Origin: a bacterium
GTDB lineage: Bacteria > 4484-113 > JAFGCY01
Direction of reading: 5' to 3'
DNA: 64,000 nt
NCBI GenBank assembly: GCA_020440645.1
Contig: JAGRNR010000009.1
Span: 5,092 to 69,091, forward strand
This document shows positions 21,826 to 53,103 of the stretch, in pieces (position 1 is the first letter of the stretch; each line of letters starts with the position of its first letter). Made by a program: the position numbers and the translations under genes. Under the pieces are notes generated by a model, which saw nothing but the letters and a program-made list of their open reading frames with translations, ran no database searches and had not been told where the DNA came from.

Positions 21826-21851
21826 CGGGGAAGCCCCGCGAGGAGTGATAC

Positions 21852-22784: not shown

Positions 22785-22785
22785 G

Positions 22786-23097: not shown

Positions 23098-23165
23098 GAC
23101 ACAAGTTCGAAAACTGCAGGTTATAGATACTGTTGAGTTGAACCCCCGAAGAGAGGGATTTTTAT

Positions 23166-34480: not shown

Positions 34481-34943
34481 GCTGCACCTCCTCCACCGTT
34501 TCCGGCTCGTTGGCAGCACTGCCGCCCGCTCCTGCTGCGGCGATGTTGCGCAGCTGGGCATGGTGCCCGGGCGCCGTCACCACGAACCAGTAGAGGAAGC
34601 CGGGCAGCAACAGCAGCACCGGCCGCAGTGTGAACTGCAGTTCGTACTGCAGCCACAGCGAATACAGGCAGCCGCAGGCCGCGAAGCTCCACAGCAGGGA
34701 AGCGATGCCGGGCCGCCGCCTGAACCAGGGGTTGATCCAGGCCGCATTGCGCGCCGGCGTCAGCGGCAGCACCGCCAGCAGCAGGCCGATTGCCAGCAGG
34801 GCCAGCGGGCCGAACCACTGCGTTGTCAGCACGGGTGCCACTCCAAGCACGATGCGCAGGTACAGGCCCCAGGCCCCGGCGGCCACGAGCAGCAGCTCTC
34901 CGAGGAGATGCAGCAGGTTCTGGCTGGTTGACAGCATCCTCAT
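34473..34943 (-). CDS. Unknown small membrane protein (156 aa, about 4 TM), embedded in the complex I-like operon
   Basis: The ATG at 34943 overlaps the nuoH stop (ATGA). Sequence MRMLSTSQNLLHLLGELLLVAAGAWGLYLRIVLGV... The track ORF (to 35042) is over-extended into nuoH. Confidence 0.7.
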   Translation of the reverse strand: MRMLSTSQNLLHLLGELLLVAAGAWGLYLRIVLGVAPVLTTQWFGPLALLAIGLLLAVLPLTPARNAAWINPWFRRRPGIASLLWSFAACGCLYSLWLQYELQFTLRPVLLLLPGFLYWFVVTAPGHHAQLRNIAAAGAGGSAANEPETVEEVQHA

Positions 34944-36715
34944 CCGGTCCAGCTCACCTCCCGGCGGGGCTGCGGATGTCGGCGCTGCACGAACAGGATG
35001 CGCCAGGCCATCAGGAGGATGAACAGGCCGAAGAACAGGCACAGCACGTTGTAGCCCCAGAAGAAGGCCTTCTCGGGGACTGTCATCACCGCCAGTGCTT
35101 CAGCTGTTGTCAGCGTCTGGTACTGGGTGACGCGCTGCAGGGCGGTCACGTCGACATCGGAGACGGCCAGCTGGTTCGCGCTGAACCAGGGATGGCGGTT
35201 GACGACGCCGAGCGCGGTGGCCGCCATCACGACCACGCTGGCCGGCAGCAGGAACTTCCAGGAGAAGAACATGATCTGGTCCACGCGGATGCGCGGCATC
35301 GTGGAGCGCGCCCATATGAAGAAGAAGCACACGGCGTAGGTCTTCAGCAGGAACCAGAACAGGCTCGTCAGCCACAATCCGTCGGGGCCGAGGAACATCG
35401 GGCCCTTCCAGCCGCCGAAGAAGCAGACGGTCATGATCGCGCTGACGATGAACACGTTGGAGTACTCGGCGACATAGAACAGCGCGAAGCGCATCCCGCT
35501 GTACTCCACCAGGTAGCCGCCCAAGAGCTCGTTCTGCGCTTCCGGCAGGTCAAAGGGCGGGCGGTTGGTCTCGGCAAGGCTGACAACGAGGTAGATGATG
35601 AAGGCCGGGAACAGCGGCAGGATGCCCCAGGTCATCGTCTGGCGCTGCACGATCTCCGTCAGGTTCAGCGAACCGGCAAAGATGGCAACGCACAGCAGGC
35701 TCATCAGCATCGGGATTTCGTAGGTCAGCAGCATCGCGGCCTCGCGCATCGCGCCGACCAGTGCATATTTGTTGTTGGAGGCGTAGCCGGACATGATCAC
35801 GGCCACGAGGAACATCGCAAAGTCGGCGATGATCAGGAGCAGGCCGACATTCAGGTCCTGGATCATGTAGTAGATGATCTGCCCGTCGACAGCCGCCACG
35901 CCGAACGGGATCACCACCCAGCTCAGGAGCGCCGGCAGGTAGACGAGGATCGGCGCGATCAGGTACAGCAGCTTGTCAGCGCTGAGCGGAACGGTGTCTT
36001 CCTTGAAGAAGATCTTGATCGTGTCGTAGAAGCCCTGGCGCCAGTAGTAGCGCAGCATGTAGCTCATGTAGAGCACGAAGGCGACCACGGTGCACAGCAC
36101 GGTGAGCTGCGGCAAAAACGGGATGTGCGCCTTCGGGATGAAGCCCAGCAGGAGAGCGACGAGCATGCCACCGCAGGACGCGAGGGATGGCCAGGCCAGC
36201 AGTGACAGCAGCGTTGCCAGGAAGCGCCAGACGGAGGTCTGCGCGGCCTGCATCCGGCCGAGCGCTGGCAGGATCATCAAGCGGTTGATCAGCCCCATCA
36301 TGCCCACGGCGAAGAACAGGATGATCCAGCCGCCGAACTGTTGCCAGCCGGCGGTGCCGCCGGTCCAGTAGTTGATGCCGTACAGCAGCGCGGGCAGGCC
36401 GATCAGCACGCCGATCTGCAGGAAGATCCGCCGGAAGCGCTGCGGGGTGACCTCGCCGTACTCCTGCGGGCCGCGGCGGCCCTGCATGCGCGCCATCAGG
36501 CGGCGTTCCCAGACCTGCAGGCCGATGGTGATCATCAGCTCCAGGAGGAAGATCAGCAGGAGCGCCGTCACCAACATGATGCCGTTGGCAACCTCCGGGC
36601 TGAAGCGCAGGCCGGGCAGCGGCTCGGTGTTGAGCCAGGCGCGCATCGCCTCCCAGACGGTGCGGGCCTCGTCCATGTCGTAGCGCTGCTGCAGGATTGC
36701 CAGCATCGGGAGCAT
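34940..36715 (-). CDS. nuoH: NuoH/ND1 homologue, enlarged (591 aa) by a multi-TM insertion after TM1
   Basis: WERRLMARMQGRRGPQ, then about 170 inserted residues, then IKIFFKED, SLAETNRPPFDLPEAQNELLGGYLVEYSG and ARSTMPRIRVDQ. The ATG at 36715 overlaps the nuoD stop (TGATG). Confidence 0.85.
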   Translation of the reverse strand: MLPMLAILQQRYDMDEARTVWEAMRAWLNTEPLPGLRFSPEVANGIMLVTALLLIFLLELMITIGLQVWERRLMARMQGRRGPQEYGEVTPQRFRRIFLQIGVLIGLPALLYGINYWTGGTAGWQQFGGWIILFFAVGMMGLINRLMILPALGRMQAAQTSVWRFLATLLSLLAWPSLASCGGMLVALLLGFIPKAHIPFLPQLTVLCTVVAFVLYMSYMLRYYWRQGFYDTIKIFFKEDTVPLSADKLLYLIAPILVYLPALLSWVVIPFGVAAVDGQIIYYMIQDLNVGLLLIIADFAMFLVAVIMSGYASNNKYALVGAMREAAMLLTYEIPMLMSLLCVAIFAGSLNLTEIVQRQTMTWGILPLFPAFIIYLVVSLAETNRPPFDLPEAQNELLGGYLVEYSGMRFALFYVAEYSNVFIVSAIMTVCFFGGWKGPMFLGPDGLWLTSLFWFLLKTYAVCFFFIWARSTMPRIRVDQIMFFSWKFLLPASVVVMAATALGVVNRHPWFSANQLAVSDVDVTALQRVTQYQTLTTAEALAVMTVPEKAFFWGYNVLCLFFGLFILLMAWRILFVQRRHPQPRREVSWTG

Positions 36716-37866
36716 CACTTGTCGACCTCCCCGATCATGATGTCGAGGCTGCCGTAGATCACGAACAGGTCCGCCAGCAGGTAGCCGCGGCACAGCTCGT
36801 CCAGCAGGAACAGGTGGTACAGGCTCGGCGCACGCAGGTGCATGCGGCTCGGGCGGTTGCTGCCGTCGCTGACGAGTGTCAGGCCGAGCTCGCCGCGCGG
36901 GCTCTCGACCGCCGTGTAGACCTCGCCGCGTGAGACCTGCATCGCAGCGAAGTCTGGGCTGACATCCGCCGCCCGCAGCTCGCCGTTGTCAATGTAAGCC
37001 AGGCAGTGCTCAATGATGCGCAGGCTCTCGCGCATCTCGACGAAGCGCACGCGGTAGCGGTCCAGCACATCGCCATACTCGCCGGTCGGCACATGCAGCT
37101 CCAGCTCGCCGTACATCGCATAGGGCTGGTCGCGGCGCAGGTCATGCGCGATCCCGCTGCCGCGCAGCACGGGCCCGGTGGCACCGTGCTCGAAGGCGAA
37201 CTCGGGCTCGAGCGTGCCGATCAGCTCGCTGCGGTTGACCCAGATCGCGTTGTCAGAGAAGAAGTCCTCGTATTCATCCAGCCGGCCCTGGAACCACAGG
37301 CAGAATGCCCGCACATGGCCGCTGAAGTCCTCCGGCGGGGCAGTGCGCACGCCGCCGGGCACGATCCAGCCGTGGTGGTGGCGGTGCCCGCTGAGCATCT
37401 CCAGCAGGTCGAGCAGCATCTCGCGCTCGCGCAGCGAGATGAAGATCGGGGTGTAGGCGCCGGCCTCCAGGCCGAGGTTGCCAAACCAGAACAGGTGGTT
37501 GCCGATCCGGCTCAGCTCCAGCACAAGGGTGCGCAGCCACTGCGCACGGGCCGGAACCGTGATCCCCTCGATGCGCTCGATGGCGTCCGCCACCAGCCAG
37601 TCCGCATTGCTGCCGGCCAGCCACTCGCAGCGGGACAACAGCCCCGCCGCCTGGGCGTAGTTGCGCTGGGTCACCAGCTGCTCCACGCCGCGGTGCATGA
37701 AGCCGACCTCCGGCGTGATGCGCTCGATCAGCTCGCCGTCCGCCTGTACCCGCAGTTCCAGCGGGCTCGGCAGGCTCGGATGCTGCGGGCCGACGGAGTA
37801 GACCAGCTTCTCGGTCAGCAGCGGGTCGCGGCGGATCTCGACACGGCGATCAGAGCTGCGCGTCAT
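36715..37866 (-). CDS. nuoD: NuoD / 49-kDa / NiFe-hydrogenase-large-subunit-like protein lacking quinone-ligand and NiFe-ligand residues
   Basis: GPQHPSLPSPLEL (canonical GPQHPxxHGVLRL), GFMHRGVE, SRCEWL (canonical RxDY), REREMLLDLLE, SPRGELG, RAPS and C-terminal DIMIGEVDK. GGGAGGTG lies 6 nt before the ATG at 37866. Confidence 0.85.
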   Translation of the reverse strand: MTRSSDRRVEIRRDPLLTEKLVYSVGPQHPSLPSPLELRVQADGELIERITPEVGFMHRGVEQLVTQRNYAQAAGLLSRCEWLAGSNADWLVADAIERIEGITVPARAQWLRTLVLELSRIGNHLFWFGNLGLEAGAYTPIFISLREREMLLDLLEMLSGHRHHHGWIVPGGVRTAPPEDFSGHVRAFCLWFQGRLDEYEDFFSDNAIWVNRSELIGTLEPEFAFEHGATGPVLRGSGIAHDLRRDQPYAMYGELELHVPTGEYGDVLDRYRVRFVEMRESLRIIEHCLAYIDNGELRAADVSPDFAAMQVSRGEVYTAVESPRGELGLTLVSDGSNRPSRMHLRAPSLYHLFLLDELCRGYLLADLFVIYGSLDIMIGEVDK

Positions 37867-38431
37867 CAAGCACCTCCCGCATCGCCGCGTCCGCGCGCTG
37901 TTTCAGCACGTTTTCAGCGTAGTTCTCATGTGAGGCAGCCCTGAACTCCCGCCTGAGCGGGAAGCCCTGCAGCTGCGGGTCGAGGATCAGGCCAATGAGG
38001 TTAGGGTTGCCGGCGAAGGGGATGCCGAAGAACTCGAAGATCTCGCGCTCCATCAGCTCCGTGGCCCGCCAGATCAGGCTCAGGCTGGGGTGCACGCTCT
38101 GCCCGGCATAGGCCGGCGCGGCCTCGCTGTCCTCCCCGCCCGGATCCGTTGCCGGGGGATTGCCCTCCAGCAGGGTGAATTTCCATTTCAGTGTGAGGCT
38201 GACGTCATGCCGCCTGCCGTGCCTGAGCGTCAGGTAGAGGTGGAAGTCCGGCCCGCCGAGGTGGTTGGCGGTCATGTTCAGCGCACGGATGAAGCCGATG
38301 TTCTTCAGCTGGCGGCAGACCAGCGGCAGCTGGCCGCTGTCCGTCAGGATCGCCCAGCCGCGGGCGGGGTCCAGCAGCAGCACATCACCGCAGTCCTCAC
38401 GGATCTGACCGGCAAGCTCATCAGGGAGCAC
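37850..38431 (-). CDS. nuoC: NuoC / 30-kDa subunit homologue
   Basis: SLSLIWRATELMEREIFEFFGIPFAGNPNL and GFPLRREF. GGAGG lies 5 nt before the GTG at 38431. The track uses the TTG at 38434. Confidence 0.8.
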   Translation of the reverse strand: MLPDELAGQIREDCGDVLLLDPARGWAILTDSGQLPLVCRQLKNIGFIRALNMTANHLGGPDFHLYLTLRHGRRHDVSLTLKWKFTLLEGNPPATDPGGEDSEAAPAYAGQSVHPSLSLIWRATELMEREIFEFFGIPFAGNPNLIGLILDPQLQGFPLRREFRAASHENYAENVLKQRADAAMREVLDDAQL

Positions 38432-38537
38432 CAAGTCCTCCCCATCCTGGCTGGATTACGGCAATCGGCATACAGGTATAAACGATCAAAAGCCCCACAG
38501 CGTTACCTTATACATACAAAATGCAAAGGCTTTTGTA

Positions 38538-38543
38538 ATTCTA
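38538..38543 (-). promoter_or_regulatory. Putative -10 box TAGAAT in the AT-rich region upstream of nuoC
   Basis: The + strand reads attcta, about 106 nt upstream of the nuoC start. It implies that nuoC..M is transcribed separately from nuoAB. Confidence 0.35.
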
Positions 38544-38689
38544 GCCGATGGGGCAGCGCTGATCACCGCCTGCAGGCAATTGGTTGAAGGGCGTGTGGGT
38601 CTGCCAGCCCAATTGTTAACAGCGGGAAAATCAAAGTAAAGTCCCGATTCAATTAGTTGATTCATTATCTTGCGAGCCTGGATAATTTC

Positions 38690-38695
38690 TATAAT
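38690..38695 (+). promoter_or_regulatory. Putative -10 box TATAAT for the membrane-protein/histidine-kinase pair
   Basis: The + strand reads TATAAT, 54 nt before the ATG at 38750. Confidence 0.35.
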
Positions 38696-38749
38696 TCAAA
38701 TCGTCAGACCCAGTCTGTACCGGTTGAATTCAAGATTCCAGGTCAAGGC

Positions 38750-39025
38750 ATGCCACAGCAGCATGAATTAATTACTGCAATCCTCGGACTTGGCGTGTTG
38801 TTGCTGATGATCGTGCAACGCCGCCAGCTGCGGCTCATCCCTGACTACCGCTGGCTGTTCCTCTCCTACTGCCTGATCCTGCTGGCCTGGCTGCTGACCA
38901 TTGCGGAAGATTACTGGCTGCCGGTCTACATGAACCTGCTGGAGCATATCTGTTACCTGGCCAGCGCAGCGCTGGTCGCCTGGTGGACACAGAAGTTCCT
39001 CAGAAGGGAAGCGCCACAGCAATGA
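38750..39025 (+). CDS. Small 3-TM membrane protein resembling the kinase sensor membrane domain
   Basis: MPQQHELITAILGLGVLLLMIV... The segment IPDYRWLFLSYCLILLAWLL parallels RRDYLWCLIILLVVLGL in the kinase. ATGA overlap with the kinase start. Confidence 0.6.
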   Translation: MPQQHELITAILGLGVLLLMIVQRRQLRLIPDYRWLFLSYCLILLAWLLTIAEDYWLPVYMNLLEHICYLASAALVAWWTQKFLRREAPQQ

Positions 39026-40836
39026 GCATGCTGCTGACGGTGTTTGACCTGCTGAGCCTGCTGGCCGTGCTGTCTGCACTGTGGCTGGCGGCAGCCAGGC
39101 GGATTGCCGGCCTGCGGCGTGACTACCTGTGGTGCCTGATCATCCTGCTGGTGGTGCTGGGTCTCAACTTCCTCAGCAACCTGCTGGACAACAGCGGGCT
39201 GAGCCCCTGGCTGGAGCGCTTCGAGGACTACCCCGGACTGCTGCAGCCGGTGTTCTGGGGCATCCTCCTGATGAGCCTGGTGCAGGACCGCGCCCTGCGC
39301 CGCACCGAGCTCTCTGAACAGCGGCTGCGCGGCCTGCTGGACGCGATGCGTGACGGGGTTGCCACTATTGACCCGGGTGGCGTGTTCCGCTTTGCCAACC
39401 CGGCGGCCGCGGAAATCCTCGGGGTTGCCCACGGCAGCCTTAGCGGCCGCAGTCTGGACGAGTTCTGGCTGGCTACCGAATCGCATACTTGCCGGATGCT
39501 GCCACATTCCCCGGGCCAGGATTACAGCGCCTACGAATGCGGCATCCGCCATGGCAGCGGCGACAGCCTCGTGCTGCTGCTGCAGGTCTCGCCGATCCCG
39601 GGCCAGCCCCGCCAGCGCCTGCTGTTCATGCATGATGTGACCCCGCTGCGCCGGGCCGAGCACAGCCTGCAGCAGGCCCAGGCCCAGCTCGGACAGGCCC
39701 AGCGGCTGGAGGCGATCGGCACGCTGGCCAGCGGCATCGCCCATGACTTCAACAACATCCTGTTCGCGATTTCCGGCAACAGCCAGATCGCGCTGGATAC
39801 TGAGGGACTGACCGTCGATGCGCGGGAGAGCCTGCGCGAGATCGACACCGCCAGCCGCCGCGCCTCCGACCTGGTGGCGCAGATCCTCAACTTCAGCCGC
39901 AGCGAGAAGAGCCGGACACGGGACCTGTTGCCACTTCCGGTTGTCAAGGAAGTGCTGCGCCTGCTGCGCTCCACCGTGCCGCCGCAGGTCAGCATCCAGC
40001 TCAGCCATGACGAATCGACGTGCCGGATCCATGCCGACCCGACCGACCTGCACCAGCTGCTGATGAACCTCTGCACCAATGCGATCCAGGAGATGGCGGT
40101 GGAGGGCGGGACGCTGCGGGTCCGGTTGGAGTGCAGCAATCCACCGCCGACACTGGCCGAGCGGGGAATGCTGCAGCCTAAACCACACCTGATGCTCAAG
40201 GTCAGTGACACGGGGGGCGGTATTCCACCGGATGCGCTGCCGCACATCTTCGAGCCCTTCTTCACGACCAAGCCAAGCGGTGAGGGCACCGGTCTAGGGC
40301 TGTTCGTTGTCAGCGGGATCGTCAAGCGCCTGCAGGGACAGATCGAGATTGACAGCGAACCGGGCCATGGCAGCAGCTTCACGGTCTGGCTGCCGCTGTC
40401 CAGCGGGGCCGCTGATGCCGACGATGCCGGGCCGGGGCAGGCCACCGGCCGCGGCCGGGGCCGGCTGCTGGTGGTTGACGACGAGCCGGCGGTCAACCGG
40501 GTGCTGGCGCTGATGCTCGGCCAGCTCGGCTACAAGGTGACAACCTATAGCGACAGCTACCGCGCGCTCAGTGAGTTCCAGACCAACCCGGAGCAGTACG
40601 ACCTGCTGCTGTGCGACATCTCGATGCCGGGCCTGCGCGGCGATGAACTGGTGAAGCGGATACGCTCCGTTCGCCCAGGCCTGCCGGTGGTGCTGTGCTC
40701 CGGCAATCCGGATGTTCTGCCTCCGGGCAGTGCAACTGAACTGGGTGTGCATGCAGTGCTTAAGAAACCGGTTGACAAGCCACAGCTGGCGGATTGCATC
40801 GCCGAGGCACTTGGCAGTAACCGTGCACAGGCCTGA
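39022..40836 (+). CDS. Hybrid sensor histidine kinase (TM sensor, PAS, HisKA, HATPase_c, receiver)
   Basis: LASGIAHDFNNIL (H box), LMNLCTNAIQE (N), DTGGGIP (G1), GTGLGL (G2). Receiver RLLVVDDEP...LLLCDISMPG...VLKKPV. Confidence 0.9.
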   Translation: MSMLLTVFDLLSLLAVLSALWLAAARRIAGLRRDYLWCLIILLVVLGLNFLSNLLDNSGLSPWLERFEDYPGLLQPVFWGILLMSLVQDRALRRTELSEQRLRGLLDAMRDGVATIDPGGVFRFANPAAAEILGVAHGSLSGRSLDEFWLATESHTCRMLPHSPGQDYSAYECGIRHGSGDSLVLLLQVSPIPGQPRQRLLFMHDVTPLRRAEHSLQQAQAQLGQAQRLEAIGTLASGIAHDFNNILFAISGNSQIALDTEGLTVDARESLREIDTASRRASDLVAQILNFSRSEKSRTRDLLPLPVVKEVLRLLRSTVPPQVSIQLSHDESTCRIHADPTDLHQLLMNLCTNAIQEMAVEGGTLRVRLECSNPPPTLAERGMLQPKPHLMLKVSDTGGGIPPDALPHIFEPFFTTKPSGEGTGLGLFVVSGIVKRLQGQIEIDSEPGHGSSFTVWLPLSSGAADADDAGPGQATGRGRGRLLVVDDEPAVNRVLALMLGQLGYKVTTYSDSYRALSEFQTNPEQYDLLLCDISMPGLRGDELVKRIRSVRPGLPVVLCSGNPDVLPPGSATELGVHAVLKKPVDKPQLADCIAEALGSNRAQA

Positions 40837-40884
40837 CGGGCGGGCGCGTCAGTGCTTTGTGATATACATGGGGAGGAGGCAGGC

Positions 40885-41250
40885 ATGGCGAAGAAGAAGT
40901 TCGAGGATGTGGACCCGCAGGTGCTGGCGGCCTACATGAAGATGATCGGGGGCGTTGAAGGGGTCGAGGCCAAGGGGGCCGCCGCGCCGTACACCTCCCT
41001 GAATGGCAATATGTACTCCAGTATCTCGAAGTTCAACGAGATCGGCCTGCGGCTGGCGAAGGATGAGCGCGAGGCCTTCCTCGAGAAGTACGACACCCGG
41101 CTCTACCACTCCATCCCCGGATATGTGCAGCGGGAGTATGTCACCGTGCCGCCTGCACTGTTTGGCAACACACGCACTCTGCGCAGCTGGTTCCGGAAGT
41201 CCTACGACTACGTCTCATCACTGCCGGCGAAGCCCACGAAGAAGAAGTAG
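40885..41250 (+). CDS. Small cytoplasmic protein (121 aa), possibly TfoX-N/YjbR-like fold (tentative)
   Basis: GGAGGAGG at 40872..40879, 5 nt before the ATG at 40885. Sequence MAKKKFEDVD...PYTSLNGNMYSSISKFNEIGLRLAKDEREAFLEKY...REYVTVPPALF...LRSWFRKSYDYV. Confidence 0.55.
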   Translation: MAKKKFEDVDPQVLAAYMKMIGGVEGVEAKGAAAPYTSLNGNMYSSISKFNEIGLRLAKDEREAFLEKYDTRLYHSIPGYVQREYVTVPPALFGNTRTLRSWFRKSYDYVSSLPAKPTKKK

Positions 41251-41313
41251 CGGGAAGGATTTCGGCGCTCGCTTGTCGGCAGTAGCGGGCGCGCTTGGCG
41301 ACGCCATGGAGTG

Positions 41314-41471
41314 ATTGCCGCGAAGCAATGAGTGATGGTGTGTTGGTCTGCAGACCAACAGGGCCCTGTGGCTCTCAAGAGCCACACTCCGCCGCGTGCG
41401 CGCAGCCACGCGGAAAGCCCCTCTGCAATGAGCAATGCGGAGCAAGCAATGAGCCCGACGACACTCATTGC
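41314..41471. repeat. Cluster of five hairpins/palindromes with recurring GCAATGAG motifs in a 490-bp non-coding gap between convergent genes
   Basis: Hairpins: attgc..gcaat (41314..41329); a perfect 20-bp palindrome tgttggtctgcagaccaaca (41341..41360); tgtggctct ca agagccaca (41367..41386); ccgcgtg..cacgcgg (41392..41413); gcaatgag..ctcattgc (41446..41471). The motif gcaatgag occurs at 41325, 41425 and 41446. Confidence 0.6.
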
Positions 41472-41741
41472 CAGACTCTGCGGCTCTGCGTTCACCAATA
41501 TCGCTCCACCCCAGCCGCATTGCCAACCAAGTGCAGGCTAGCCTCAGCCCAGTCAAACTGGAGAATTGTCAACACAGAGCCACCGAGCGCACAGAGTTTT
41601 CTGATCAGCTCCAGTCCCCGCATTTCCCTGACTTCGCTGCATCCCCTCCCAATCGCGGCTGGGCCGCGCCGGTTCTTCCGGTAACCCTGACCCTTGTTCT
41701 TCAGGTTGACTGATTCACTGGGAAATCCGAGACGAGCCAGT

Positions 41742-42539
41742 CTATGAATACAGAAGATCCTCAAAATCCTCCGTCAGCTCTCCATGGAAAGTAGGGTAGT
41801 CAACCCTCCGGACATTGCGCCGCCATGGTCGCGGCCCCAGCTCGCTGCTTGTAAGCAGCTTGAGGTGAAGCGGATCGACATCTGTTGCCAGGCTGCATTC
41901 CGATCCGATGATCCCGTCTTTGTCCATGAAGTCCGTGTTTGGCCAGATATTGAAACTGCGACCGGATGACGTCCGGATCGAAGTCGGATTGAAGCCCATG
42001 GCAATCTCCATGGCATTGTAGCTTTCCCTGCGGATATCCAGCGGCAGGGCAAACCTTGACTGCTCAACATGCGCTGCATCCGACAATGCAGACTCTCCCT
42101 TTTGCCATTCGGGAAGGGGCATCGAGGCACTCAGGATGACAAAGGCCTTCTCTTGCCAGACGCCCGCATGATCCCTGACACAGCATGGGAACATCAGCCA
42201 CTTCATCCGCCGTTGAAACGCCGCGAATCCCACGCTGCCAATGTTCAGCAGCAGTTCCGCAAGCACTTTCGCCGGTTTCTCCATACCGGCATCCCAGGAC
42301 CTGGCCTTATCCAGGCAGCCTGCCGGAATTCTGAGCAGAAATCCCGATGCATGATCGAGATACCAGTCGGCATTGCATCTGGTGCAGATGTGCAGGATTC
42401 CGCGTTGCCAGCTTTCCCTGCGGATGATGAGCTTGTGCAGTTTGAAGTATGGGGTTTCCTCCCGGACACTTGCAGGAGGATCAGGATCCCAGGGGAGTGA
42501 TTCCCTGACCTGACAAGGGCAGCTGGCCTTGATACTCAT
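41742..42539 (-). CDS. Hypothetical Cys-rich protein (265 aa), lower GC, 19 nt downstream of nuoB
   Basis: Clean ORF MSIKASCPCQVRES...HICTRCNADWY..., with possible Zn-ribbon-like CPC/CxxC pairs. Codon third positions are visibly less GC-rich than in the neighbours. Confidence 0.6.
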   Translation of the reverse strand: MSIKASCPCQVRESLPWDPDPPASVREETPYFKLHKLIIRRESWQRGILHICTRCNADWYLDHASGFLLRIPAGCLDKARSWDAGMEKPAKVLAELLLNIGSVGFAAFQRRMKWLMFPCCVRDHAGVWQEKAFVILSASMPLPEWQKGESALSDAAHVEQSRFALPLDIRRESYNAMEIAMGFNPTSIRTSSGRSFNIWPNTDFMDKDGIIGSECSLATDVDPLHLKLLTSSELGPRPWRRNVRRVDYPTFHGELTEDFEDLLYS

Positions 42540-42558
42540 GGTTCATGGTAATGCGATC

Positions 42559-43011
42559 CTACCGCCACGCAAACCGCTCATCCAGCGCACCCGAGAGGAT
42601 GCGCTCCCGGAGCGCGATGATGCCGTCGATCAGCTGCTCGGGCCGCGGCGGGTCGCCCGGCACATAGATGTCCACTGGTACGATGCGGTCCACTCCCCCG
42701 TCCACCGCATAGCTGCCGTCGAAGGGCGCGCCGCTGATCGCCCCCGCGCCAAACGCCATCACGAAGGCCGGGTCGGCCATCGAGGCATGCAGCCGGCGGA
42801 TCACCGGGGCCATCTTGTTGTTGACGACGCCGGCCACGATCAAAAGGTCCACCTGGCGCGGGCTGGGGCGCATCACCTCAGAGCCGAAGCGCGCGATGTC
42901 ATAGCGCGGCGAGATCGCGCTGAACAGTTCCAGCGTGGCGTAGTCCAGTCCGAGCATCAGCGGCCACAGGGAATGGGCACTGGCCTCGCGGATGAGGTCC
43001 TTCAGACCCAT
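42559..43011 (-). CDS. nuoB: NuoB / PSST / hydrogenase-small-subunit-like protein with no cysteine (N2 cluster ligands all replaced)
   Basis: SLWPLMLGLDYATLELFS (canonical SLWPxxFGLACCAIEMM), SPRQVDLLIVAG, NKMAPVIRRL, FGAGAISGAPF (canonical MGACASSGG) and VDIYVPGDPPRPE (canonical VPGCPPRPE). There are zero Cys in 150 aa. Confidence 0.85.
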   Translation of the reverse strand: MGLKDLIREASAHSLWPLMLGLDYATLELFSAISPRYDIARFGSEVMRPSPRQVDLLIVAGVVNNKMAPVIRRLHASMADPAFVMAFGAGAISGAPFDGSYAVDGGVDRIVPVDIYVPGDPPRPEQLIDGIIALRERILSGALDERFAWR

Positions 43012-43400
43012 TCCAGCGCTCCCTTGCGGTAGGCATAGGCCCAGCCGACGAGCAGGATGCCGAGGAACACGAACATCTCGCCCAGTGAGGCGGCCCCGAT
43101 CGGCGTGAAGGTGATGTCGTCATTGCCGAACACCAGCAGCCGGAAAGCGGTGGCCCAGGGGAAGATGAACATGATGTCCACGTCGAACATGAGGAACACG
43201 ATCGCGAGGATGTAGAAGCGGATGTTGAAGCGCACCAGCGCATCGCCGGTGGCCTGCGCGCCGGATTCATAGCTCAGGCGCTTGAGGAAGTTCGGCCGCC
43301 GCGGACGCCACAGGTTCAGGAAAGCGAATGCCAGCCCGATCAGCACCGCCCCGCCCAGCAGGAAGAGTGCCACCCAGTTGTACTGTCCAACGGTGTTCAT
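43002..43400 (-). CDS. nuoA: NuoA/ND3 homologue
   Basis: LSYESGAQATGDALVRFNIRFYILAIVFLMFDVDIMFIFPWA. A 10-nt overlap with nuoB. Confidence 0.85.
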   Translation of the reverse strand: MNTVGQYNWVALFLLGGAVLIGLAFAFLNLWRPRRPNFLKRLSYESGAQATGDALVRFNIRFYILAIVFLMFDVDIMFIFPWATAFRLLVFGNDDITFTPIGAASLGEMFVFLGILLVGWAYAYRKGALEWV

Positions 43401-43453: not shown

Positions 43454-45553
43454 CTAGTTCACGGTGATGAACTTGTAGGCGATGCCCGTTTCCCCGAGCG
43501 AATCCGTCACCCGCACGGCAAGTGTGTAGAATCCGGGTGAGTTGAGGGTAGTGTTGATCGTGCTGTTCTCGAAGGTGGCTTCGAAGAAGCCGTCACCGTC
43601 CAGGTCATAGTCATAGATAACCGACAGCCCGTCCTCATCGTCCGAGCTCAGGCTGGCATCCAGCATTACCAGCACCGGTGCAAACCCAGTGTCCGGTGAT
43701 CCAGTCAGCACGGCGTTGGGCGGATGGTTCTCCAGACAGGTCAGCTTGTAGGCGCCCGGGCCGGTCTCGATGGCGGAACCGGGCACGAACACCTTCAGGT
43801 AGTAGCGCCCGGCGGCCGGCAGGCTGAAGTTGATGTATTCACGGTCCACGTTGTCAATCGATTCAATCAACGGAACGACCAGGTCTGACTCATGGTACAG
43901 AGCCAGTGAAAGGTCGACCGTCGCCGAACTGAAGTCCACCCAGAAGCTGGCGGTGGTGGCCCGGTCGGCATCGATCGCGTACCAGTCCTCGGTGTCGCTG
44001 CCGCCGACGCTAGCACTCCAGTCGCGGATATGCTTCGCGTAGTTGAGGAAACCGCCGAGGCTGTCCGCCTCCGTCTCGGCATTGTTGGGCTCAGTCTCCT
44101 GCGGGTCCACCCCGTTTGACACGATCACCTTCAGGCTGGCGGTGGCCTCCCGCTCACCACTGTCGGTGATGCGCACCGTTGGCGTGAATTCGCCGGGCAG
44201 CGTGTAGGTGATGTCACCACCGGGGTTCAGGCCGAGGTCATAGTCAAACGTGCCGTCACCCTCGAAGTCCCATTCGTACTTGACGATGTCATTGTCGGGG
44301 TCCACGAGGCCGCTGGTGTCGATGTAACGGATGATTCCGTTCTGCAGGCAGTAGTAGTCGATGCTCAGTTCAGCAGTGGGCGGGTTCTCACCGCTGATCG
44401 GCGTGATCGTGACATCCGTCGTGGCCGTGGCACTTTCCCCGAAGAAATCGATCACCATCACCCCGACGGTGAAGGTGCCGGCCTCGATGAATTCGCGGTA
44501 GGCGAAGGGGACCGGGGTCTGCAGCTCATGGAACCCGTCGTCGTCAAGGTCCCAGCGGTAATTGACGATGCCGCCATCCGGGTCCATGCTGTTGAAGGCG
44601 TCAAAGTTGATGGCCTGGGGCAGCGGACCGCCGTTCGGCAAGGCCACGATGTCCGCGATCGGTGGCAGGTTGCCCGGTTCACCGGTCACATTGATCGTGG
44701 CGGTGGCTTCGCCGGTGCCACCTTCGTTATCAACCACGCGCAGGGTGCAGGTGAAGGTGCCGACATGGTCGTAGTCGTGGCTGGGGGTCGGCCCGAGGTC
44801 ACCGGGTGTGAAGTAGATTGGGTCCTCGAATGACCAGTGGTACTCGGCGATCGTGCCATCCAGGTCGGAGCTGGCGGAGCCGTCAAACCCTGTGGTGAAG
44901 AAGTACTGGCCGCTGTCCTGGGCCACGGTGAAGCTGGCGGTCGGGGCGAAGTTGCCACCGAGCCGCACACGGGTCAGCTCGAAGCTGCCGCTGCCGGTCA
45001 GCAACACGCAGCAGTAGATCGCGTCGAAGTTCGAGAAATAGCCGTCCAGCGAGCCGAAGTCGAAGTGGTCATCGTCATTGCCAAGCTGCCATTTCCAGCG
45101 GCCGCTGCCGTAATCCGTGATGCCGACGTAGTACTCGCCGGAGTCCGGGCGCACGCCCCACTGCAGGTCGACCTGAGCCTCCCTTGCGAATCCCGGCAGG
45201 TGGTAACCGTAGATGCCCCAGCTCACATCCAGCTTCGGCGGGTTGGCGGCGGGGTCCCAGTCCGGGGCCATCAGCAGGCTGTCCCCGAACACGATCGCAT
45301 TCTCGCGGCTGCCGGGCGTGATGATCTCCGCACCCTTGCGGATGTAGTCCGCCGGTGTATCACTGAAGCTGCGCCCAACGGCGGGCAGCTCGGCCGGGGC
45401 TGGAAGCTGGGCAAGCAGGTCCTGCGGCAGTTCAACCGGACCGGACTGGCGCTCAGGCGTGGCAGCCTTTTCCTGCAGGTTGGCAGCGCCGGATGAACAG
45501 GCTGCCAGGCAGAATAGGCAGCCTGCCAGCAGAAGGGCAAATGAAGCACGCAT
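43454..45553 (-). CDS. Paralog 1: lipoprotein with a conserved unknown N-domain, PKD repeats, a PPC (pre-peptidase C-terminal) domain and a terminal PKD
   Basis: MRASFALLLAGCLFCLAACSSG. N-domain motifs VSWGIYGY and RWKWQLG...LRLGGNFAP. PKD examples YHWSFEDP..., YRWDLDDDGFHE and YEWDFEGDGTFD. PPC motif ETEPNNAETEADSLG...DWYAI...GRYYLKV. Confidence 0.85.
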   Translation of the reverse strand: MRASFALLLAGCLFCLAACSSGAANLQEKAATPERQSGPVELPQDLLAQLPAPAELPAVGRSFSDTPADYIRKGAEIITPGSRENAIVFGDSLLMAPDWDPAANPPKLDVSWGIYGYHLPGFAREAQVDLQWGVRPDSGEYYVGITDYGSGRWKWQLGNDDDHFDFGSLDGYFSNFDAIYCCVLLTGSGSFELTRVRLGGNFAPTASFTVAQDSGQYFFTTGFDGSASSDLDGTIAEYHWSFEDPIYFTPGDLGPTPSHDYDHVGTFTCTLRVVDNEGGTGEATATINVTGEPGNLPPIADIVALPNGGPLPQAINFDAFNSMDPDGGIVNYRWDLDDDGFHELQTPVPFAYREFIEAGTFTVGVMVIDFFGESATATTDVTITPISGENPPTAELSIDYYCLQNGIIRYIDTSGLVDPDNDIVKYEWDFEGDGTFDYDLGLNPGGDITYTLPGEFTPTVRITDSGEREATASLKVIVSNGVDPQETEPNNAETEADSLGGFLNYAKHIRDWSASVGGSDTEDWYAIDADRATTASFWVDFSSATVDLSLALYHESDLVVPLIESIDNVDREYINFSLPAAGRYYLKVFVPGSAIETGPGAYKLTCLENHPPNAVLTGSPDTGFAPVLVMLDASLSSDDEDGLSVIYDYDLDGDGFFEATFENSTINTTLNSPGFYTLAVRVTDSLGETGIAYKFITVN

Positions 45554-45675: not shown

Positions 45676-47790
45676 TCAAATGGGTAAGGCAGTTACTATG
45701 ACGAAGTCTGTATCCGCGAGGCCCCACTCATCGATTACGCGCACGCTGACGACGATTGCACCGGGTACTGTGATCTGCGTGTCATAGGTGGGCTGGAACT
45801 GGCCGGTCACTTCAAAGATCCCGTCACCGTCGACATCAAACTGGTATTCAGTGATGTAGCCCATCTCAACTGTGCTGGCAGATGCATCCAGCGAAATGTC
45901 AAATGGAACCGACCCAACGAGCGGATCAGCGGACAAAGCGGCGTGCGGGCCGTCATAGTTGCGGCAGCGGAATGTGTAGTCACCGGGGCCCTTCGCCAGT
46001 GCTGAGGGATCTATGCTCACACGGATCAGGTACTGGCCGGCGGAGGGCAGCACGAACTTGAGGATTTCACTATCCAAGATGCCGTGTGCGCTGGCCAATG
46101 GGTTGTCGGTGTCGCCGGCGGAATACAGGTCCAGGCGCATGTCTATCTCGCTGCGGAGGAAATCCGCGACGAACGCCACTGGACCGCTGCGGTCGGATTC
46201 GAAGGAGTACCAGTCCGCGCTGTCGCCGCCGCCCTCATCCAGTGAGCCCTTCCAGTTGCAGATCCCCTTGGAGTAGTTCATGAAGCCGGTGAACTCCTCG
46301 GCCTCGCCCGGGGTACCGTTGGGTTCAGTTTCAGCCAAGCCGGAATTCGGCCCGATCCGCAGCGGTATGCTGGCAACGTCTGTCCGGCCGCCGCTGTCCG
46401 TCACGCGGAATGTCGCGTTGAAAGTCTGCCCTGTCTGGGCATAGGTCGCAACGAATTCCTCACCGGGGGCGAAAGAATAATCGAATATGCCATCACCCTC
46501 CAGGTCCGTCTCGAACGAGACGATGTCATTGTCGGGGTCGCTGCTCTCGCTCCAGTCTATCCTGAAGGCACCCGGTGAGTTGAAGCTGTAGTCGGACTTG
46601 ACGACGATGGTCGGCGGCTCAGTACCATCAACCGGGTCAATCACCACCGTGGTTGAGGCGGTGCTAAAGCTGCCCTGGTTGTCAATCGCCATCACGGACA
46701 CCTCATAGCTGCCGGGTACGGCGAAGAACCACTTCTGCACGGCACTGCCAAAAACCTCGAAATGCCCGTCTCCGTCGAAGTCGAAACGGTAGCCGGCTAT
46801 CGAGCCGTCCGTGTCGCTGCTGCCGCTGCAGTCGAAGTTGATCCACTGCGGGACCGGTCCACCGCTGGTGTCAGGCACGATCGAGGCAAGCGGTGCAGCG
46901 TTGCCATCCACCAGGGCGACCGAAATCGGGATGCTGAGCTCGGCGGTGGCTCCCTCATTGTCCGTCAGGCGCAGTGTGCAGGTGTACTCGCCCGCGTGGT
47001 CGTAAGTCCAGAAAACCACCGGGGCCGGGTACCGGAAATCCGTGTAGACCGGATCCTCCATTGACCATTCGTAGCCTGCAATGCTGCCGTCCGGATCGTG
47101 GCAACCCGAGGCGTCGAACTGGACCTCCAGAGAGCCTGTTCCACTGGTCTGGTTCGGGATCAGGCTGGCCACGGGCGGCAGGTTCTCCCCCAGACGCAGC
47201 CGGCTGAGATTGAAGTTGCCCTTGTCCGCGACCAGGATGGTGAAATAGATGTCGCCATTCCCGGAGAAGTAGCCGTCAAGGCTACCGAAATCAATGATGT
47301 CCTGATCCGTGCCCTGGAACCATTGCCAGCGATTGCTGCTGAAGTCGCTGACACCGATGTAGTGGCGCGCTCCGTCCGGCCTGGGGCCTTCCCACAGTAC
47401 CTGCAGTTCCGGCTGGCGCTGGAAATCAGTGATGTTGAAACCTTAAATCGCCCAGCTCAGCTCACGTGTCGGCGGCTCGGCCACGGGCTCGTAATCAGCA
47501 ACCATCACAAGCATGTTCCCGACAATGCTCGCATTGGCGAATGCATCAGGCTGATAAGTCTGATATCCATCCCGCAGGAAGTCCTCCGGGACATTGCTGG
47601 CGCTGCGCTGCTGCTGAGGCAGGCTGTCCAGTCCCGGCAGCCCGTCAGCCAGCGAGGGACTGAGCTGTACAGCCTCAGCCTGCGCGGAAACGGGCAGGTC
47701 AGCCGCCTGCTCCGGATGGGCCGGCTGGCTGCTGCATGAAGCCGCGAGCAGCAGGCAGCCTGCGCACGCGATGGCGAGAAGAGCTTTCAT
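45676..47790 (-). pseudogene. Paralog 2 of the PKD/PPC lipoprotein family, interrupted by a single in-frame TAA (47445..47443)
   Basis: Track ORFs 47443..47790 and 45676..47172 are in the same frame (2115 nt, 705 codons). My translation across the gap reads LSWAI*GFNITDFQ...YIGVSDFSSNRWQWFQG...LRLGENLPP, aligning with LSWGIYGFNIADYQ...YIGVSDYSSGHWQWRQG...LRLGGNFPP of paralog 3. The stop replaces a Tyr conserved in all three other paralogs. Confidence 0.8.
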
Positions 47791-47903: not shown

Positions 47904-49997
47904 TCAGGGGGCGATGCCCGTCACTGTCACCGTGGCGATTGACTCCATTCCCAGCATGTCCTGTACCTTGACGCCGAGCTCCTGCGGTCCTTCCCAGCTG
48001 ACGGTGCCAGTACCGAGCCATCCGCCGGGCTCGCTCTCGAAGATCCCGTCGCCATCCATGTCAAAGAAGTAGATCAGGCCCTCCAGGTAACGGTCATAGC
48101 TGCGGCCCGCGTTGAGCACAACCTCGGTCCCCGTCTCCACTACCGTTGCGGAGGCCGTGACAAAAGCCACCGGCTTGGAGGGGTCCCAGAAGTCCAGCTT
48201 GTAGCCGCTGTCCTGCCCGGCCTCGCCTGCCTGCTTCGTGAACACGCGCAGGAAGTAGTCCCCCGGCGCCGTAATGAGAACGGACATAAACTCGTTGTCG
48301 GTATCCGAGTAGCTGAAGAACAGCGGGTTCACCAGGTCAAGAGGGCTGTACATCTCAATGTCCATGTCCATGAAACTGTGCGTGAAGATCAGGTTGAACC
48401 ACAGCTGGCCGTTGTGCGCGGCATGGATCACATACCAGTCCTCGGTATCCTCAGCGAACTTGAGCTGGCCGGGAAAGTCGCGCACCCGCACACACTCGTT
48501 GCCAAAACTGCCCAGGCTGATCGCCGTCTCCGGGCTGTCATTCGGTTCTACCTCCGGCTGGCCGGAGAATGGCGTGACCATCACTGGACAGGTTGCCGTG
48601 TCACTGCGTCCGCCGCTGTCAGTGACCCTCACGGCGACGTTGAACACGCCGCCATCCTGGGAATAGGTCACGTTATTCACGGGATCGAGCCCTGAATCAA
48701 CGTCGAACGTGCCGTCACCCTCGAAGTCCCATTCGTACTTCACGATGTCATTGTCAGGGTCATAGGATCCCTGTGCGGTGAAGTACCGTGCACCCGCAGT
48801 GTTGTCATACCAGTAGACGGCCTCCAGCTTTGCCACCGGAGGCTCCGTGCCCTCCACGGGCAGCACCTCGATCTGCATCGTGGCCGTGTCGACGGCACCG
48901 AACTCATCAATCACCATCACGCTGGGGTTGTAGGTGCCGGCTGCGATGTACAGAGCCTTGAACACCGGGCTGCCAAAAGTGAACTGCTCGAAGTACCCGT
49001 CCTCGTCAATGTCCCAGCGGAATGTCATGAAACCGTTCTCCGGATCCGTGCTGTCCTGTGCATTGAGCGTGACGGAAAGCGGAACCAGGCCGGATACCAC
49101 ATCAGATTCAGAGTAGATATCGGCCACAGGCGGGTCATTGCCAGGCACGGCGGTGACGCTGATCGGAATGACAAATTCCGTCATTCCGCCTTCGAGGTCA
49201 TGCGCCCTGCCTATGCAGTCGTACTCGCCGACATGGTCATACTCCCAGTACAGGAACGGACCGGCGGGCTCGAAGATCGGCCCACCCTCGGCGGACCATT
49301 CAAAGAAGGTCAGAGTGCCATCCGGATCGTAGCTGGCTGAGGCATCGATGTTGACCGTCAGCTTGCCCTGGCCGCTGTCGTTGTCAATCGTGTAGTCGAT
49401 CACGGGCGGGAAGTTGCCGCCGAGGCGCAGCCTGCTGAAGGTGAACTGGCCCTCCGTTGCCAGCAGCACCACCACATACAGGTCGCCGTTGGCAGAGAAA
49501 TAGTCAGCCAGCCCCGGGAAGTCCACGGTCCCGTCCGCCGTACCCTGGCGCCACTGCCAGTGTCCGCTGGAGTAATCACTGACCCCGATGTAGATGCCGG
49601 AGCTGGCGGGCGCAGTGCCATTCCACTTTGCCTGGATCTCCGTGCCGCGCTGGTAGTCTGCGATGTTGAAACCGTAGATCCCCCAGCTCAGTCCATGCAT
49701 CGGCGGGTCGCCCTGCGGATCATAGGTCGGGCTCATCGAGAGCTTGTCACCGGTCACCTCGGCATTCATCTTCGCCGATACCTTGTAGATGTCGGCTCCC
49801 GTGCGGATGCAGGCTTCCGGCGTATTGCTGGTACTGCGCTGCATGGCAGGCAGGGCAGAAATGGCCGGCAGCTGCGATTCAAGCTGCGGCAGGACAGCGT
49901 CGCCTGCCGGTTGGTTTACCTGGCCGCCACTTCCGCTGGAGCAGGCTGCCAGCAGCAGCATCGCTCCGGCCAGCAGGCCACTGAGCTGTCTGAACAT
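47904..49997 (-). CDS. Paralog 3: lipoprotein with the unknown N-domain, PKD repeats, PPC and a terminal PKD
   Basis: MFRQLSGLLAGAMLLLAACSSGSGG, LSWGIYGFNIADYQ, FRWDIDEDGYFE, YEWDFEGDGTFD, and EVEPNDSPETAISLG...DWYVIHA...GDYFLRV. Confidence 0.85.
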   Translation of the reverse strand: MFRQLSGLLAGAMLLLAACSSGSGGQVNQPAGDAVLPQLESQLPAISALPAMQRSTSNTPEACIRTGADIYKVSAKMNAEVTGDKLSMSPTYDPQGDPPMHGLSWGIYGFNIADYQRGTEIQAKWNGTAPASSGIYIGVSDYSSGHWQWRQGTADGTVDFPGLADYFSANGDLYVVVLLATEGQFTFSRLRLGGNFPPVIDYTIDNDSGQGKLTVNIDASASYDPDGTLTFFEWSAEGGPIFEPAGPFLYWEYDHVGEYDCIGRAHDLEGGMTEFVIPISVTAVPGNDPPVADIYSESDVVSGLVPLSVTLNAQDSTDPENGFMTFRWDIDEDGYFEQFTFGSPVFKALYIAAGTYNPSVMVIDEFGAVDTATMQIEVLPVEGTEPPVAKLEAVYWYDNTAGARYFTAQGSYDPDNDIVKYEWDFEGDGTFDVDSGLDPVNNVTYSQDGGVFNVAVRVTDSGGRSDTATCPVMVTPFSGQPEVEPNDSPETAISLGSFGNECVRVRDFPGQLKFAEDTEDWYVIHAAHNGQLWFNLIFTHSFMDMDIEMYSPLDLVNPLFFSYSDTDNEFMSVLITAPGDYFLRVFTKQAGEAGQDSGYKLDFWDPSKPVAFVTASATVVETGTEVVLNAGRSYDRYLEGLIYFFDMDGDGIFESEPGGWLGTGTVSWEGPQELGVKVQDMLGMESIATVTVTGIAP

Positions 49998-52965: not shown

Positions 52966-53103
52966 CCGGATTTTATGGTGACACATGTGAAAGATTAATT
53001 GTGTACCGCCGGTCGGTTTCATCTCAATTTGAAGTACCCTTGAAATTGTGGAAGAATTGTAAGAGGGCAGGCAAGCATGCCTGTCCGGCTGGCTGGACAA
53101 GCA

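Follow-up and report, generated by a model that had tools for sequence, protein, structure and literature searches.

An apparently iron-sulfur-free and quinone-site-less derivative of respiratory complex I encoded by a conserved nuo operon

In this work, we analysed a 64,000-nucleotide stretch of bacterial DNA (GTDB lineage Bacteria; 4484-113; JAFGCY01; assembly GCA_020440645.1, contig JAGRNR010000009.1, positions 5,092 to 69,091), hereafter called the window, and found in it an operon that appears to encode a conserved derivative of respiratory complex I free of iron-sulfur clusters, lacking the quinone site and equipped with two pump modules. A first-pass annotation had pointed to one gene of this operon, nuoB*, as encoding a homologue of NuoB in which all four cysteine ligands of cluster N2 are replaced. 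The replacement is confirmed here, but the claim is too narrow in scope: the redox sites appear to have been lost across the whole complex and not from NuoB alone. NuoB* may be the cluster-less small subunit of a complex that works as a redox-independent ion translocator, a reading that is weighed below against its alternatives.

The NuoB* protein, which contains no Cys in its 150 residues, just as had been stated, belongs to the Pfam family PF01058 (Oxidored_q6) with an E value of 1.8e-19 (70.2 bits against a cut-off of 27). Among all PDB sequences, phmmer ranked Nqo6 of T. thermophilus (2fug_6) first (5.9e-38), followed by about 40 NuoB/PSST/NdhK chains and only then by the small subunits of hydrogenases, MbhJ (2.8e-23) and HycG (8.8e-22). 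The HMMER alignment with Nqo6 contains a single gap of one residue, such that residue n of NuoB* corresponds to residue n+21 of Nqo6 up to about residue 97 and to n+20 thereafter; therefore, the mapping of positions is unambiguous. The N2 ligands Cys45, Cys46, Cys111 and Cys140 of Nqo6 are replaced by Y24, A25, G90 and D120, respectively. The motif blocks GLDYATLE, FGAGAISGA and VPGDPPRPE, quoted exactly in the first-pass annotation, are thus upheld as the counterparts of the ligand-bearing blocks of Nqo6. The substitution set had been described as D-Y/G/D; its G and D are borne out, but the tandem Cys became Y-A and not D-Y, the Asp (D23) standing in place of Ala44 that precedes the tandem. 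The corresponding codons are GAC for D23 (42943..42945), TAC for Y24 (42940..42942), GCC for A25 (42937..42939), GGG for G90 (42742..42744) and GAC for D120 (42652..42654), those of A25 and D120 being two substitutions away from any Cys codon. NuoB* retains the SPRQ motif, whose Arg we take to be the one hydroxylated in mammalian PSST. The gene also occupies its usual place in a nuo operon, just after nuoA and before nuoC and nuoD, and its ATG start shares 10 nt with the stop of nuoA.

A search of 5.8 billion proteins clearly showed that NuoB* is a member of a distinct clade. Among the 48 best clusters (61–97% identity), 47 read GLDY[ATCGS]T[LQ]E / G.[GN]A[IV]SG / PGDPP, and every match from rank 49 down (59% identity at most) is canonical, with CC/C/C at these positions, so that the boundary of the clade is sharp. 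When the Cys-ligand status of all 352 retrieved NuoB homologues was scored by motif matching, 301 proved to be canonical with the tandem Cys and the GCP Cys, one was a hybrid and 50 were without these motifs, 47 of the latter forming one clade with NuoB*. NuoB-like proteins with this signature, for which a database survey had been proposed, do exist as a clade of 47 clusters. The absence of Cys from 150 residues is not rare by itself; it is the pattern across homologues that distinguishes the clade. All of its members have D23 and D120, and the conservation of Y24 and G90 is 96% or more. The fixed differences from canonical NuoB proteins in or next to the N2 pocket are F41L, A44D, C45Y, A47T, I48L, C111G and C140D; outside the pocket, we found only five scattered conservative changes, and 39 positions of the fold core are common to both groups. 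Assemblies from NCBI, ENA and Logan contain the identical 150-aa protein (P0121) on 21 contigs in all, and D-Y-A/G/D is preserved in each of nine variants that differ only slightly from it. These contigs include the closed 4.11-Mb genome CP060262.1 ("Planctomycetales bacterium HK-STAS-UBP7_A-1", a metagenome-assembled genome from activated sludge), a close strain whose NuoA and NuoB are 100% identical and whose remaining subunits are 90–99% identical to those of the window.

The ratio of non-synonymous to synonymous substitution rates (dN/dS) for nuoB* is 0.15 in comparison with two related species, and against the closest strain there are no non-synonymous changes at a dS of 0.06. Pairwise comparisons with the close strain and the two related species gave dN/dS of 0–0.28 for nuoA, B*, C, D, the gene X2 (nuoI*, see below), J, K and L. 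For nuoH, dN/dS against locus L001 is 0.04, and the values against L003 and L004 (~2.5) were excluded as an artefact of an indel and of codon registration. An AlphaFold2 model built with 38 clade members and confident over residues 50–140 has the NuoB fold, its top 50 Foldseek matches in the PDB being NuoB/PSST/NdhK chains without exception. NuoB* is thus intact, conserved in many lineages and under purifying selection. The conservation in the clade, the selection and the fold all support the view put forward at the outset that it is a folded, functional subunit without an iron-sulfur cluster, where "functional" follows from selection and from the conservation of the operon.

The 49-kDa subunit, NuoD*, has lost the ligands of the quinone head group. 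Its best PDB match has an E value of 2.6e-84, and it aligns with Nqo4 (2fug_4) at a constant offset of +4. In complex I, His38 and Tyr87 of Nqo4 are the residues hydrogen-bonding the quinone head group. In NuoD* these positions are occupied by P34 and W83, and Asp139 is E135. We extracted NuoD from all 73 fetched loci carrying it. In all eight loci with a Cys-less NuoB of the clade, His38 is replaced by variable residues (P, A, T or V), Tyr87 invariably by Trp and Asp139 invariably by Glu, whereas canonical loci have both His and Tyr in 64 of 64 cases where the columns are present, and Asp in 65 of 65. Both head-group ligands are likewise absent from a more distant Cys-less locus, L085, where His38 is replaced by Trp and Tyr87 by Ile. 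The loss of the N2 ligands and the loss of the quinone ligands are perfectly linked. NuoD* still keeps the Arg of the HRG motif and the His-rich GHRHHHG segment beside the old N2 site.

Between nuoH and nuoJ, in the canonical position of nuoI, the operon carries a gene, X2, for a protein that gave no significant match in single-sequence and profile searches of Pfam and PDB sequences. Its family comprises 51 clusters, which makes it similar in size to the NuoB* clade; all of them are annotated as hypothetical, and none of their Cys is conserved. The protein has an N-terminal membrane domain of about four to five helices fused to a C-terminal domain, which matches 24 canonical NuoI sequences from the fetched loci in hhalign (93% probability, E = 2.8e-7), with the N-terminal helix of NuoI and its T..YP....P..RG motif falling in register. 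The homologue encoded in L085 bridges the two families, as it is recognised by the hidden Markov models of both canonical NuoI (4e-12, with both ferredoxin motifs) and the X2 family (4.5e-22, full length), and the three-way alignment of canonical NuoI, the L085 protein and the X2 family is colinear. Foldseek placed HycF, NDUFS8, MbhN and MbsN as the top four of 350,542 chains. Because position, profile match, bridging homologue, alignment and fold all agree, we conclude that X2 (NuoI*) is a membrane-anchored NuoI derivative. Where canonical NuoI has its two CxxCxxCxxxCP motifs, NuoI* reads ALRIIAADGSGAI and LGRYDHDPALGEL; all eight Cys are gone, and with them the ligands for clusters N6a and N6b.

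The remaining subunits are listed in Table 1. As judged from the sequences and from PDB alignments, the membrane subunits keep all the charged residues that we checked in the proton pathway of complex I: the TM5 Glu, TM7 Lys, TM8 Lys or His and TM12 Lys or Glu of the antiporter-like subunits and the charges of NuoK, NuoA and the NuoH loop. NuoL retains the TM5 Glu (E152), D185, the TM7 Lys (K245), the TM8 His (H270) and the TM12 Lys (K370), together with the long C-terminal lateral helix and the last transmembrane segment; NuoM retains E190, K282, K313 and E455; and both membrane Glu of NuoK are present (LALELM, AAAEAAVG). The core of NuoH is conserved, including the TM5-6 loop ETNRPPFDLPEAQNEL, in which one Glu is Gln (PEAQNEL), and so is the TM3 core of NuoJ. 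The top 30 PDB matches of the 720-aa protein are all NuoL/ND5/NdhF (best 3.5e-42), and the top 32 of the 566-aa protein are all NuoM/ND4/NdhD (3e-73 vs. 7e-24 for NuoN); the two antiporter-like subunits are orthologues of NuoL and NuoM, not of NuoN.

Table 1. Genes of the nuo operon and of the insertion that interrupts it (window positions; Pfam families with E values; aa, amino acids; ORF, open reading frame; TM, transmembrane helix)
Feature	Position	Strand	Size	Remarks
nuoA	43002..43400	minus	132 aa	PF00507, 9.8e-28; FDVD acidic pair of TM2 kept
nuoB*	42559..43011	minus	150 aa	NuoB/Nqo6 homologue with no Cys and no cluster N2 ligands
Insertion	38435..42558		~4.1 kb	between nuoB* and nuoC
ORF265	41742..42539	minus		in the insertion; Cys-rich N-terminus, no Pfam match
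TfoX_N-like ORF	40852..41250	plus		in the insertion
PAS-HisKA-HATPase-REC hybrid kinase	38983..40836	plus		in the insertion
Small membrane protein	38657..39025	plus		in the insertion
nuoC	37850..38434	minus	194 aa	PF00329, 1e-15; 30-kDa family match in the C-terminal half only
nuoD*	36715..37869	minus	384 aa	49-kDa subunit; PF00346, 2.1e-80
nuoH	34940..36793	minus	617 aa (longest ORF)	PF00146, 3.2e-97; probable start ATG at 36715, overlapping the nuoD stop
X1	34473..34946	minus	~157 aa	small membrane protein between nuoH and nuoI*
nuoI* (X2)	33485..34480	minus	331 aa	counted from the ATG at 34480
nuoJ	32439..33485	minus	348 aa	PF00499, 4.5e-38; ATGA overlap with the nuoI* stop
nuoK	31954..32439	minus	161 aa (probable form)	PF00420, 4.4e-25; ATG overlaps the nuoJ stop
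nuoL	29756..31918	minus	720 aa	PF00361, 7e-46
nuoM	28055..29755	minus	566 aa	PF00361, 9.3e-69; final gene of the operon

Several membrane subunits carry additional segments. NuoH has a membrane insertion of about 140 residues that separates TM1 from TM2 and is extended at its C-terminus by a segment with one more transmembrane helix; NuoJ has an N-terminal membrane extension of about 118 residues in the lineage of the window only, the NuoJ of L081 and L082 being 227 aa long. The small membrane protein X1 matches neither a Pfam family nor an Mrp family. It is 31–38% identical (tblastn) to its counterparts in L005 and L082, genes of 145 and 163 aa stand in the same place in L081 and L082, and X1 is present in several clade members and absent from L084 and the JGI locus. 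All these additions, those to NuoH and NuoJ as well as the NuoI* anchor and X1, are predicted to make the "heel" of the complex much larger.

The gene order is the same in the window, L005, L081, L082, L084, L085 and a JGI contig, and the operon of the window consists of eleven intact ORFs with coupled starts. Only L and M of the three antiporter-like subunits of complex I are encoded, the operon ending after nuoM in four loci (the window, L084, the JGI contig and L085), in the window against a convergent plsY-like gene. The 64-kb window and, in six other loci, the operon with the surrounding 10 kb were found to contain no nuoE, nuoF, nuoG, nuoN or canonical nuoI, and no other electron-input module that would dock ferredoxin or F420. 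The protein identities to the distant clade members (tblastn; L005, L081 and L082) are highest for NuoA (77–81%); those of NuoB* (67–72%), NuoD (61–69%), NuoH (57–73%) and NuoJ and NuoK (~67%) come next, ahead of NuoM (52%), NuoI* (47–50%), NuoL (44%) and NuoC (~40%), with X1 the lowest. The best conserved subunits are thus those around the junction of the old quinone site and the E-channel, NuoA above all.

A rarer sister lineage was revealed by an HMMER scan of 1.84 billion representatives, in which the core clade of NuoB* collapses into one 50% cluster (P0047). The same scan yielded P0187, a Cys-free NuoB of 158 aa that reads GLSEDALE / GSGAISG / PGSPP and is encoded on an 85-kb contig (L085; ENA ERZ27262642 k141_265788) in an operon of the order A-B-C-D-H-X2-J-K-L-M. 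Its NuoI-like protein (13562..14626 of that contig) keeps exactly four Cys, one in the "ACP" of motif 1 and three in the "CYFCGLC" of motif 2, presumably the ligand set of a single [4Fe-4S] cluster of the 2×[4Fe-4S] ferredoxins, which in Nqo9 would be N6b, next to N2. L085 looks like an intermediate that has lost N2, N6a and the quinone ligands but may still hold one cluster, which points to a stepwise loss of clusters, perhaps in the order N2, N6a, N6b. Since it uses other replacement residues, the D-Y/G/D set is not universal in operons of this kind. When trees were built by neighbour joining without the diagnostic columns, 199 of 200 replicates supported the core clade and only 25 of 200 the union of all Cys-less NuoBs, so phylogeny does not decide between a single and a repeated origin.

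Two more proteins, P0342 and P0344, read GTDY/HCA.E / GSGAING / PGDPP and have lost three of the four N2 ligands. Their genes (L087–L091; Logan SRR28923672-4 and SRR22306547-8) stand alone, flanked by a ROK-family gene on one side and purA (adenylosuccinate synthetase) on the other, and the contigs, of up to 6 kb, carry no nuo genes beside them.

When set against known systems, the operon is closest to the 11-subunit complex I (NDH-1, "Nuo11"). The best PDB relatives are complex I chains throughout (NuoB 6e-38, NuoD 3e-84, NuoH 1e-62, NuoM 3e-73, NuoL 4e-42), the gene order A-B-C-D-H-I-J-K-L-M and the charges of the membrane arm are those of complex I, and the tandem CC of the complex I type is found in the canonical NuoBs nearest to NuoB*, which are up to 59% identical to it. 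It differs from complex I in having no ligands for N2, N6a and N6b, no His38 and Tyr87 in NuoD and no NuoN encoded in the operon, and in having the fusion of NuoI to a membrane domain, the extra membrane segments of NuoH and NuoJ and the extra protein X1. The cyanobacterial and chloroplast NDH-1 shares with it an 11-subunit core without NuoE/F/G, and NdhK, NdhH, NdhA, NdhD and NdhF are among the good PDB matches; however, all three [4Fe-4S] clusters and the quinone site are still there in NDH-1, which also has NdhB (NuoN) and receives electrons from ferredoxin.

The Mrp (Mnh/Sha) antiporter has no redox cofactors and is the functional analogy we favour. Its MrpA and MrpD are relatives of NuoL and NuoM and make up its two antiporter-like subunits, it has NuoK-like and NuoJ-like elements as well, and the window L and M proteins do detect the PDB Mrp chains 7qru, 6z16 and 7d3u. 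They are, however, far nearer to complex I (3e-73 and 4e-42) than to Mrp (~1e-21 to 1e-28). Mrp lacks homologues of NuoH, A, B, C, D and I and any peripheral arm, whereas the window operon lacks MrpB/E/F/G: Pfam detects only complex I families in it, neither X1 nor the other small ORFs match an Mrp family, and the full B/C/D/I arm is encoded. The relation to group 4 hydrogenases is more distant. NuoD* scores 2.6e-84 with complex I, 4e-44 with MbhL and 5.4e-32 with HycE, and NuoB* shows the same preference, so the large and small subunits derive from true complex I. The closest precedent for a superfamily member that lost its catalytic site is Ehr, whose members lack the ancestral [NiFe] ligands and have an unknown or changed function; Ehr is described as lacking the Ni-Fe ligands and is assumed to be still redox-coupled, and the loss of iron-sulfur clusters is not reported there (PMC6349859, PMC10432482, PMC4758237). 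We found no description of a NuoB without N2 ligands or of an iron-sulfur-free complex I in the literature covered, which excludes most subscription-journal papers, so a prior description is possible.

With no ligands for N2, N6a and N6b, no quinone ligands and no input module in the operon, the complex would have no NADH- or ferredoxin:quinone oxidoreductase activity. It would follow that it is maintained for some other function that needs the membrane arm and the cavity-forming subunits. Our preferred reading, in which our confidence is evenly divided, is that the conserved operon nuoA-B*-C-D*-H-(X1)-I*-J-K-L-M encodes a derivative of complex I, with NuoB* as its cluster-less small subunit, and that this complex works as a redox-independent ion translocator. 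In such a complex, still assembled in an L shape, the redox-dead peripheral arm (B*, C, D*, I*) would cap or seal the former quinone cavity and the E-channel, and the driver would be the proton-motive force instead of electron transfer, the clusters having probably been lost step by step, as L085 suggests. In its simplest form, the complex could be a cation/proton antiporter resembling Mrp, with exactly two antiporter-like subunits, as in Mrp. The function itself, redox-independent ion transport analogous to that of Mrp, we suggest only tentatively.

Several points weigh against this interpretation. The transport function is purely our inference. In Mrp, the Na+ path is formed by MrpB/E/F/G, and the operon has no homologues of these proteins. 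A plain antiporter has no obvious need for a well-conserved arm, NuoB* and NuoD* being among the best conserved subunits, and the old cavity may have acquired a new ligand. Moreover, D23, Y24 and D120 of NuoB* are near-invariant and polar or charged, while hydrophobic residues would be likelier if they merely filled space, a hint of a new site; as a counterpoint, L085 has S-E-D/G/S at the respective NuoB positions. The NuoB* model is poor over residues 11–50, where D23 and Y24 are located (predicted local distance difference test scores of 44–59); this is the segment that packs against NuoD and NuoH in the complex. Finally, nuoN, nuoE/F/G or canonical nuoB and nuoI could lie elsewhere in the 4.1-Mb genome.

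The main alternative, though we consider it rather unlikely, is that a ligand without redox function, for example, a cation (metal or organic) or the head group of a lipid, enters through the old quinone tunnel and binds in the former N2/quinone pocket. The binding and release of this ligand would replace quinone reduction as a trigger or gate of proton translocation through NuoH/A/J/K/M/L, and the complex would be a ligand-coupled transporter or a sensor derived from the coupling machinery of complex I, with a sealed pocket lined by the Asp, Tyr and Asp of NuoB* and the Trp and Glu of NuoD*. W83 and E135 of NuoD* are indeed, like the NuoB* residues, polar or aromatic and near invariant in the core clade; the subunits of the junction (A, B*, D*, H, J and K) are the most conserved; and the stand-alone NuoB-like genes with D-Y(H)/G/D outside nuo operons suggest that the signature may function on its own. 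Yet the L085 residues differ in both NuoB and NuoD, leaving no site common to all the iron-sulfur-free operons; the His38 position, in the β1-β2 loop, is variable (P/A/T/V); and no conserved partner gene points to a substrate.

It is less probable still that the complex consumes the proton-motive force for conformational work or for a signal in the peripheral arm, with no net ion exchange. Such a sensor or transducer would explain why the residues of the proton path are intact with no chemistry to drive them, why the arm is conserved and why extra membrane domains (the NuoH insertion, the NuoI* anchor, the NuoJ extension) have gathered at the heel. No conserved output partner adjoins the operon, however, and the histidine kinase of the window sits in a lineage-specific insertion and is absent from L005 and L081. 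Quite improbable, in our opinion, is an oxidoreductase with a hidden cofactor, for instance, a metal held by Asp and Tyr where N2 used to be or a flavin accommodated by the flavodoxin-like fold of NuoB. The fold is kept, the replacements are conserved carboxylates and Tyr, and the L085 NuoI keeps one full set of cluster ligands; but the core clade has lost all three clusters of the wire and both quinone ligands, the operon encodes no electron-input module, and a lone site some 12 Å from a dismantled quinone pocket would have neither donor nor acceptor.

The joint loss of several catalytic sites might also mark a decaying relic whose pseudogenes have yet to gain stop codons, but this is already contradicted by the eleven intact ORFs with coupled starts, the low dN/dS, the architecture shared by lineages that differ by 30–60% in protein sequence, the roughly 50 clusters each of NuoB* and NuoI* and the retention of all the charged residues of the membrane arm. 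A sequencing or assembly artefact is refuted by the identical protein on 21 contigs of independent assemblies, a closed genome among them, and by codon changes that are common to 47 clusters and in two of five cases need two substitutions each.

To our knowledge, the peripheral arm, wherever a characterised member of the complex I superfamily has one, bears an iron-sulfur wire ending at N2. How the chemistry at N2 and the quinone site drives proton pumping up to 200 Å away is the central open question in the field. The operon described here would be a variant produced by nature and maintained by selection: it has lost the wire and the quinone ligands but conserves the subunits that form the cavity, the E-channel and two pump modules. 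If expressed and assembled, it would allow the roles of the membrane arm and of the junction to be studied without redox input, and it might represent a living intermediate between complex I and Mrp-type antiporters. The finding also bears on annotation: NCBI and JGI records name proteins of the NuoB* type "NADH-quinone oxidoreductase subunit B", and metabolic reconstructions of UBP7_A and its relatives, uncultured bacteria from activated sludge and other metagenomes, would wrongly assign them a respiratory complex I.

Two unusual NuoB sequences deserve mention. P0044, the only exception among the 48 best clusters and the single hybrid of the motif scoring, retains CC but has G and D at the other positions; it comes from a 503-bp ENA contig and is canonical in its N-terminal third (GLACCAIEM) and of the clade type in the rest (GSGAISGA, PGDPP). 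Either the assembly joined two templates across the conserved RFGSEVFRPSPRQ block, or the protein is a genuine intermediate that still has two of the four ligands. P0185, a 533-aa entry of the representatives library, contains two to three identical NuoB/NdhK-core repeats with identical flanks and is probably a read-through assembly of a tandem or circular template, unrelated to the present finding.

In the window, nuoB* and nuoC are separated by the insertion shown in Table 1. Its content differs in L001, L003 and L004, and in L005, L081 and L085 it is absent and the operon is contiguous; in L082 and L084, other small ORFs or gaps separate nuoB from nuoC. Being variable in close relatives and absent from distant ones, the insertion is lineage-specific baggage. 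ORF265, immediately downstream of nuoB*, was considered as a new redox partner on account of its Cys-rich N-terminus and rejected, since it occurs only in the closest strain, has a homologue of 22% identity in L004 and is absent elsewhere; the PAS-histidine kinase was likewise rejected as a part of the system because of its location in the insertion. Small genes intrude elsewhere in related operons: L084 (GCA_020849855.1, JADZFO010000038.1) has a nucleotidyltransferase/HepT-like toxin-antitoxin pair between nuoH and nuoI* (9391..10004) and an additional 178-aa ORF between nuoD and nuoH, and in L082 additional small ORFs separate B* from C and D from H.

Upstream of nuoA, the minus strand of the window encodes four paralogous secreted proteins with multiple PKD_4 and pre-peptidase C-terminal domains (43454..45553, 45676..47172, 47904..49997 and 50092..52914), after which comes a 1232-aa S8 subtilase on the plus strand (53077..56775); PKD_4 proteins precede nuoA in L082 as well. 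A few kb beyond the end of the operon lie a MotA/MotB stator pair and a FliL-domain protein (21025..24071), which are not conserved at this place in other lineages.

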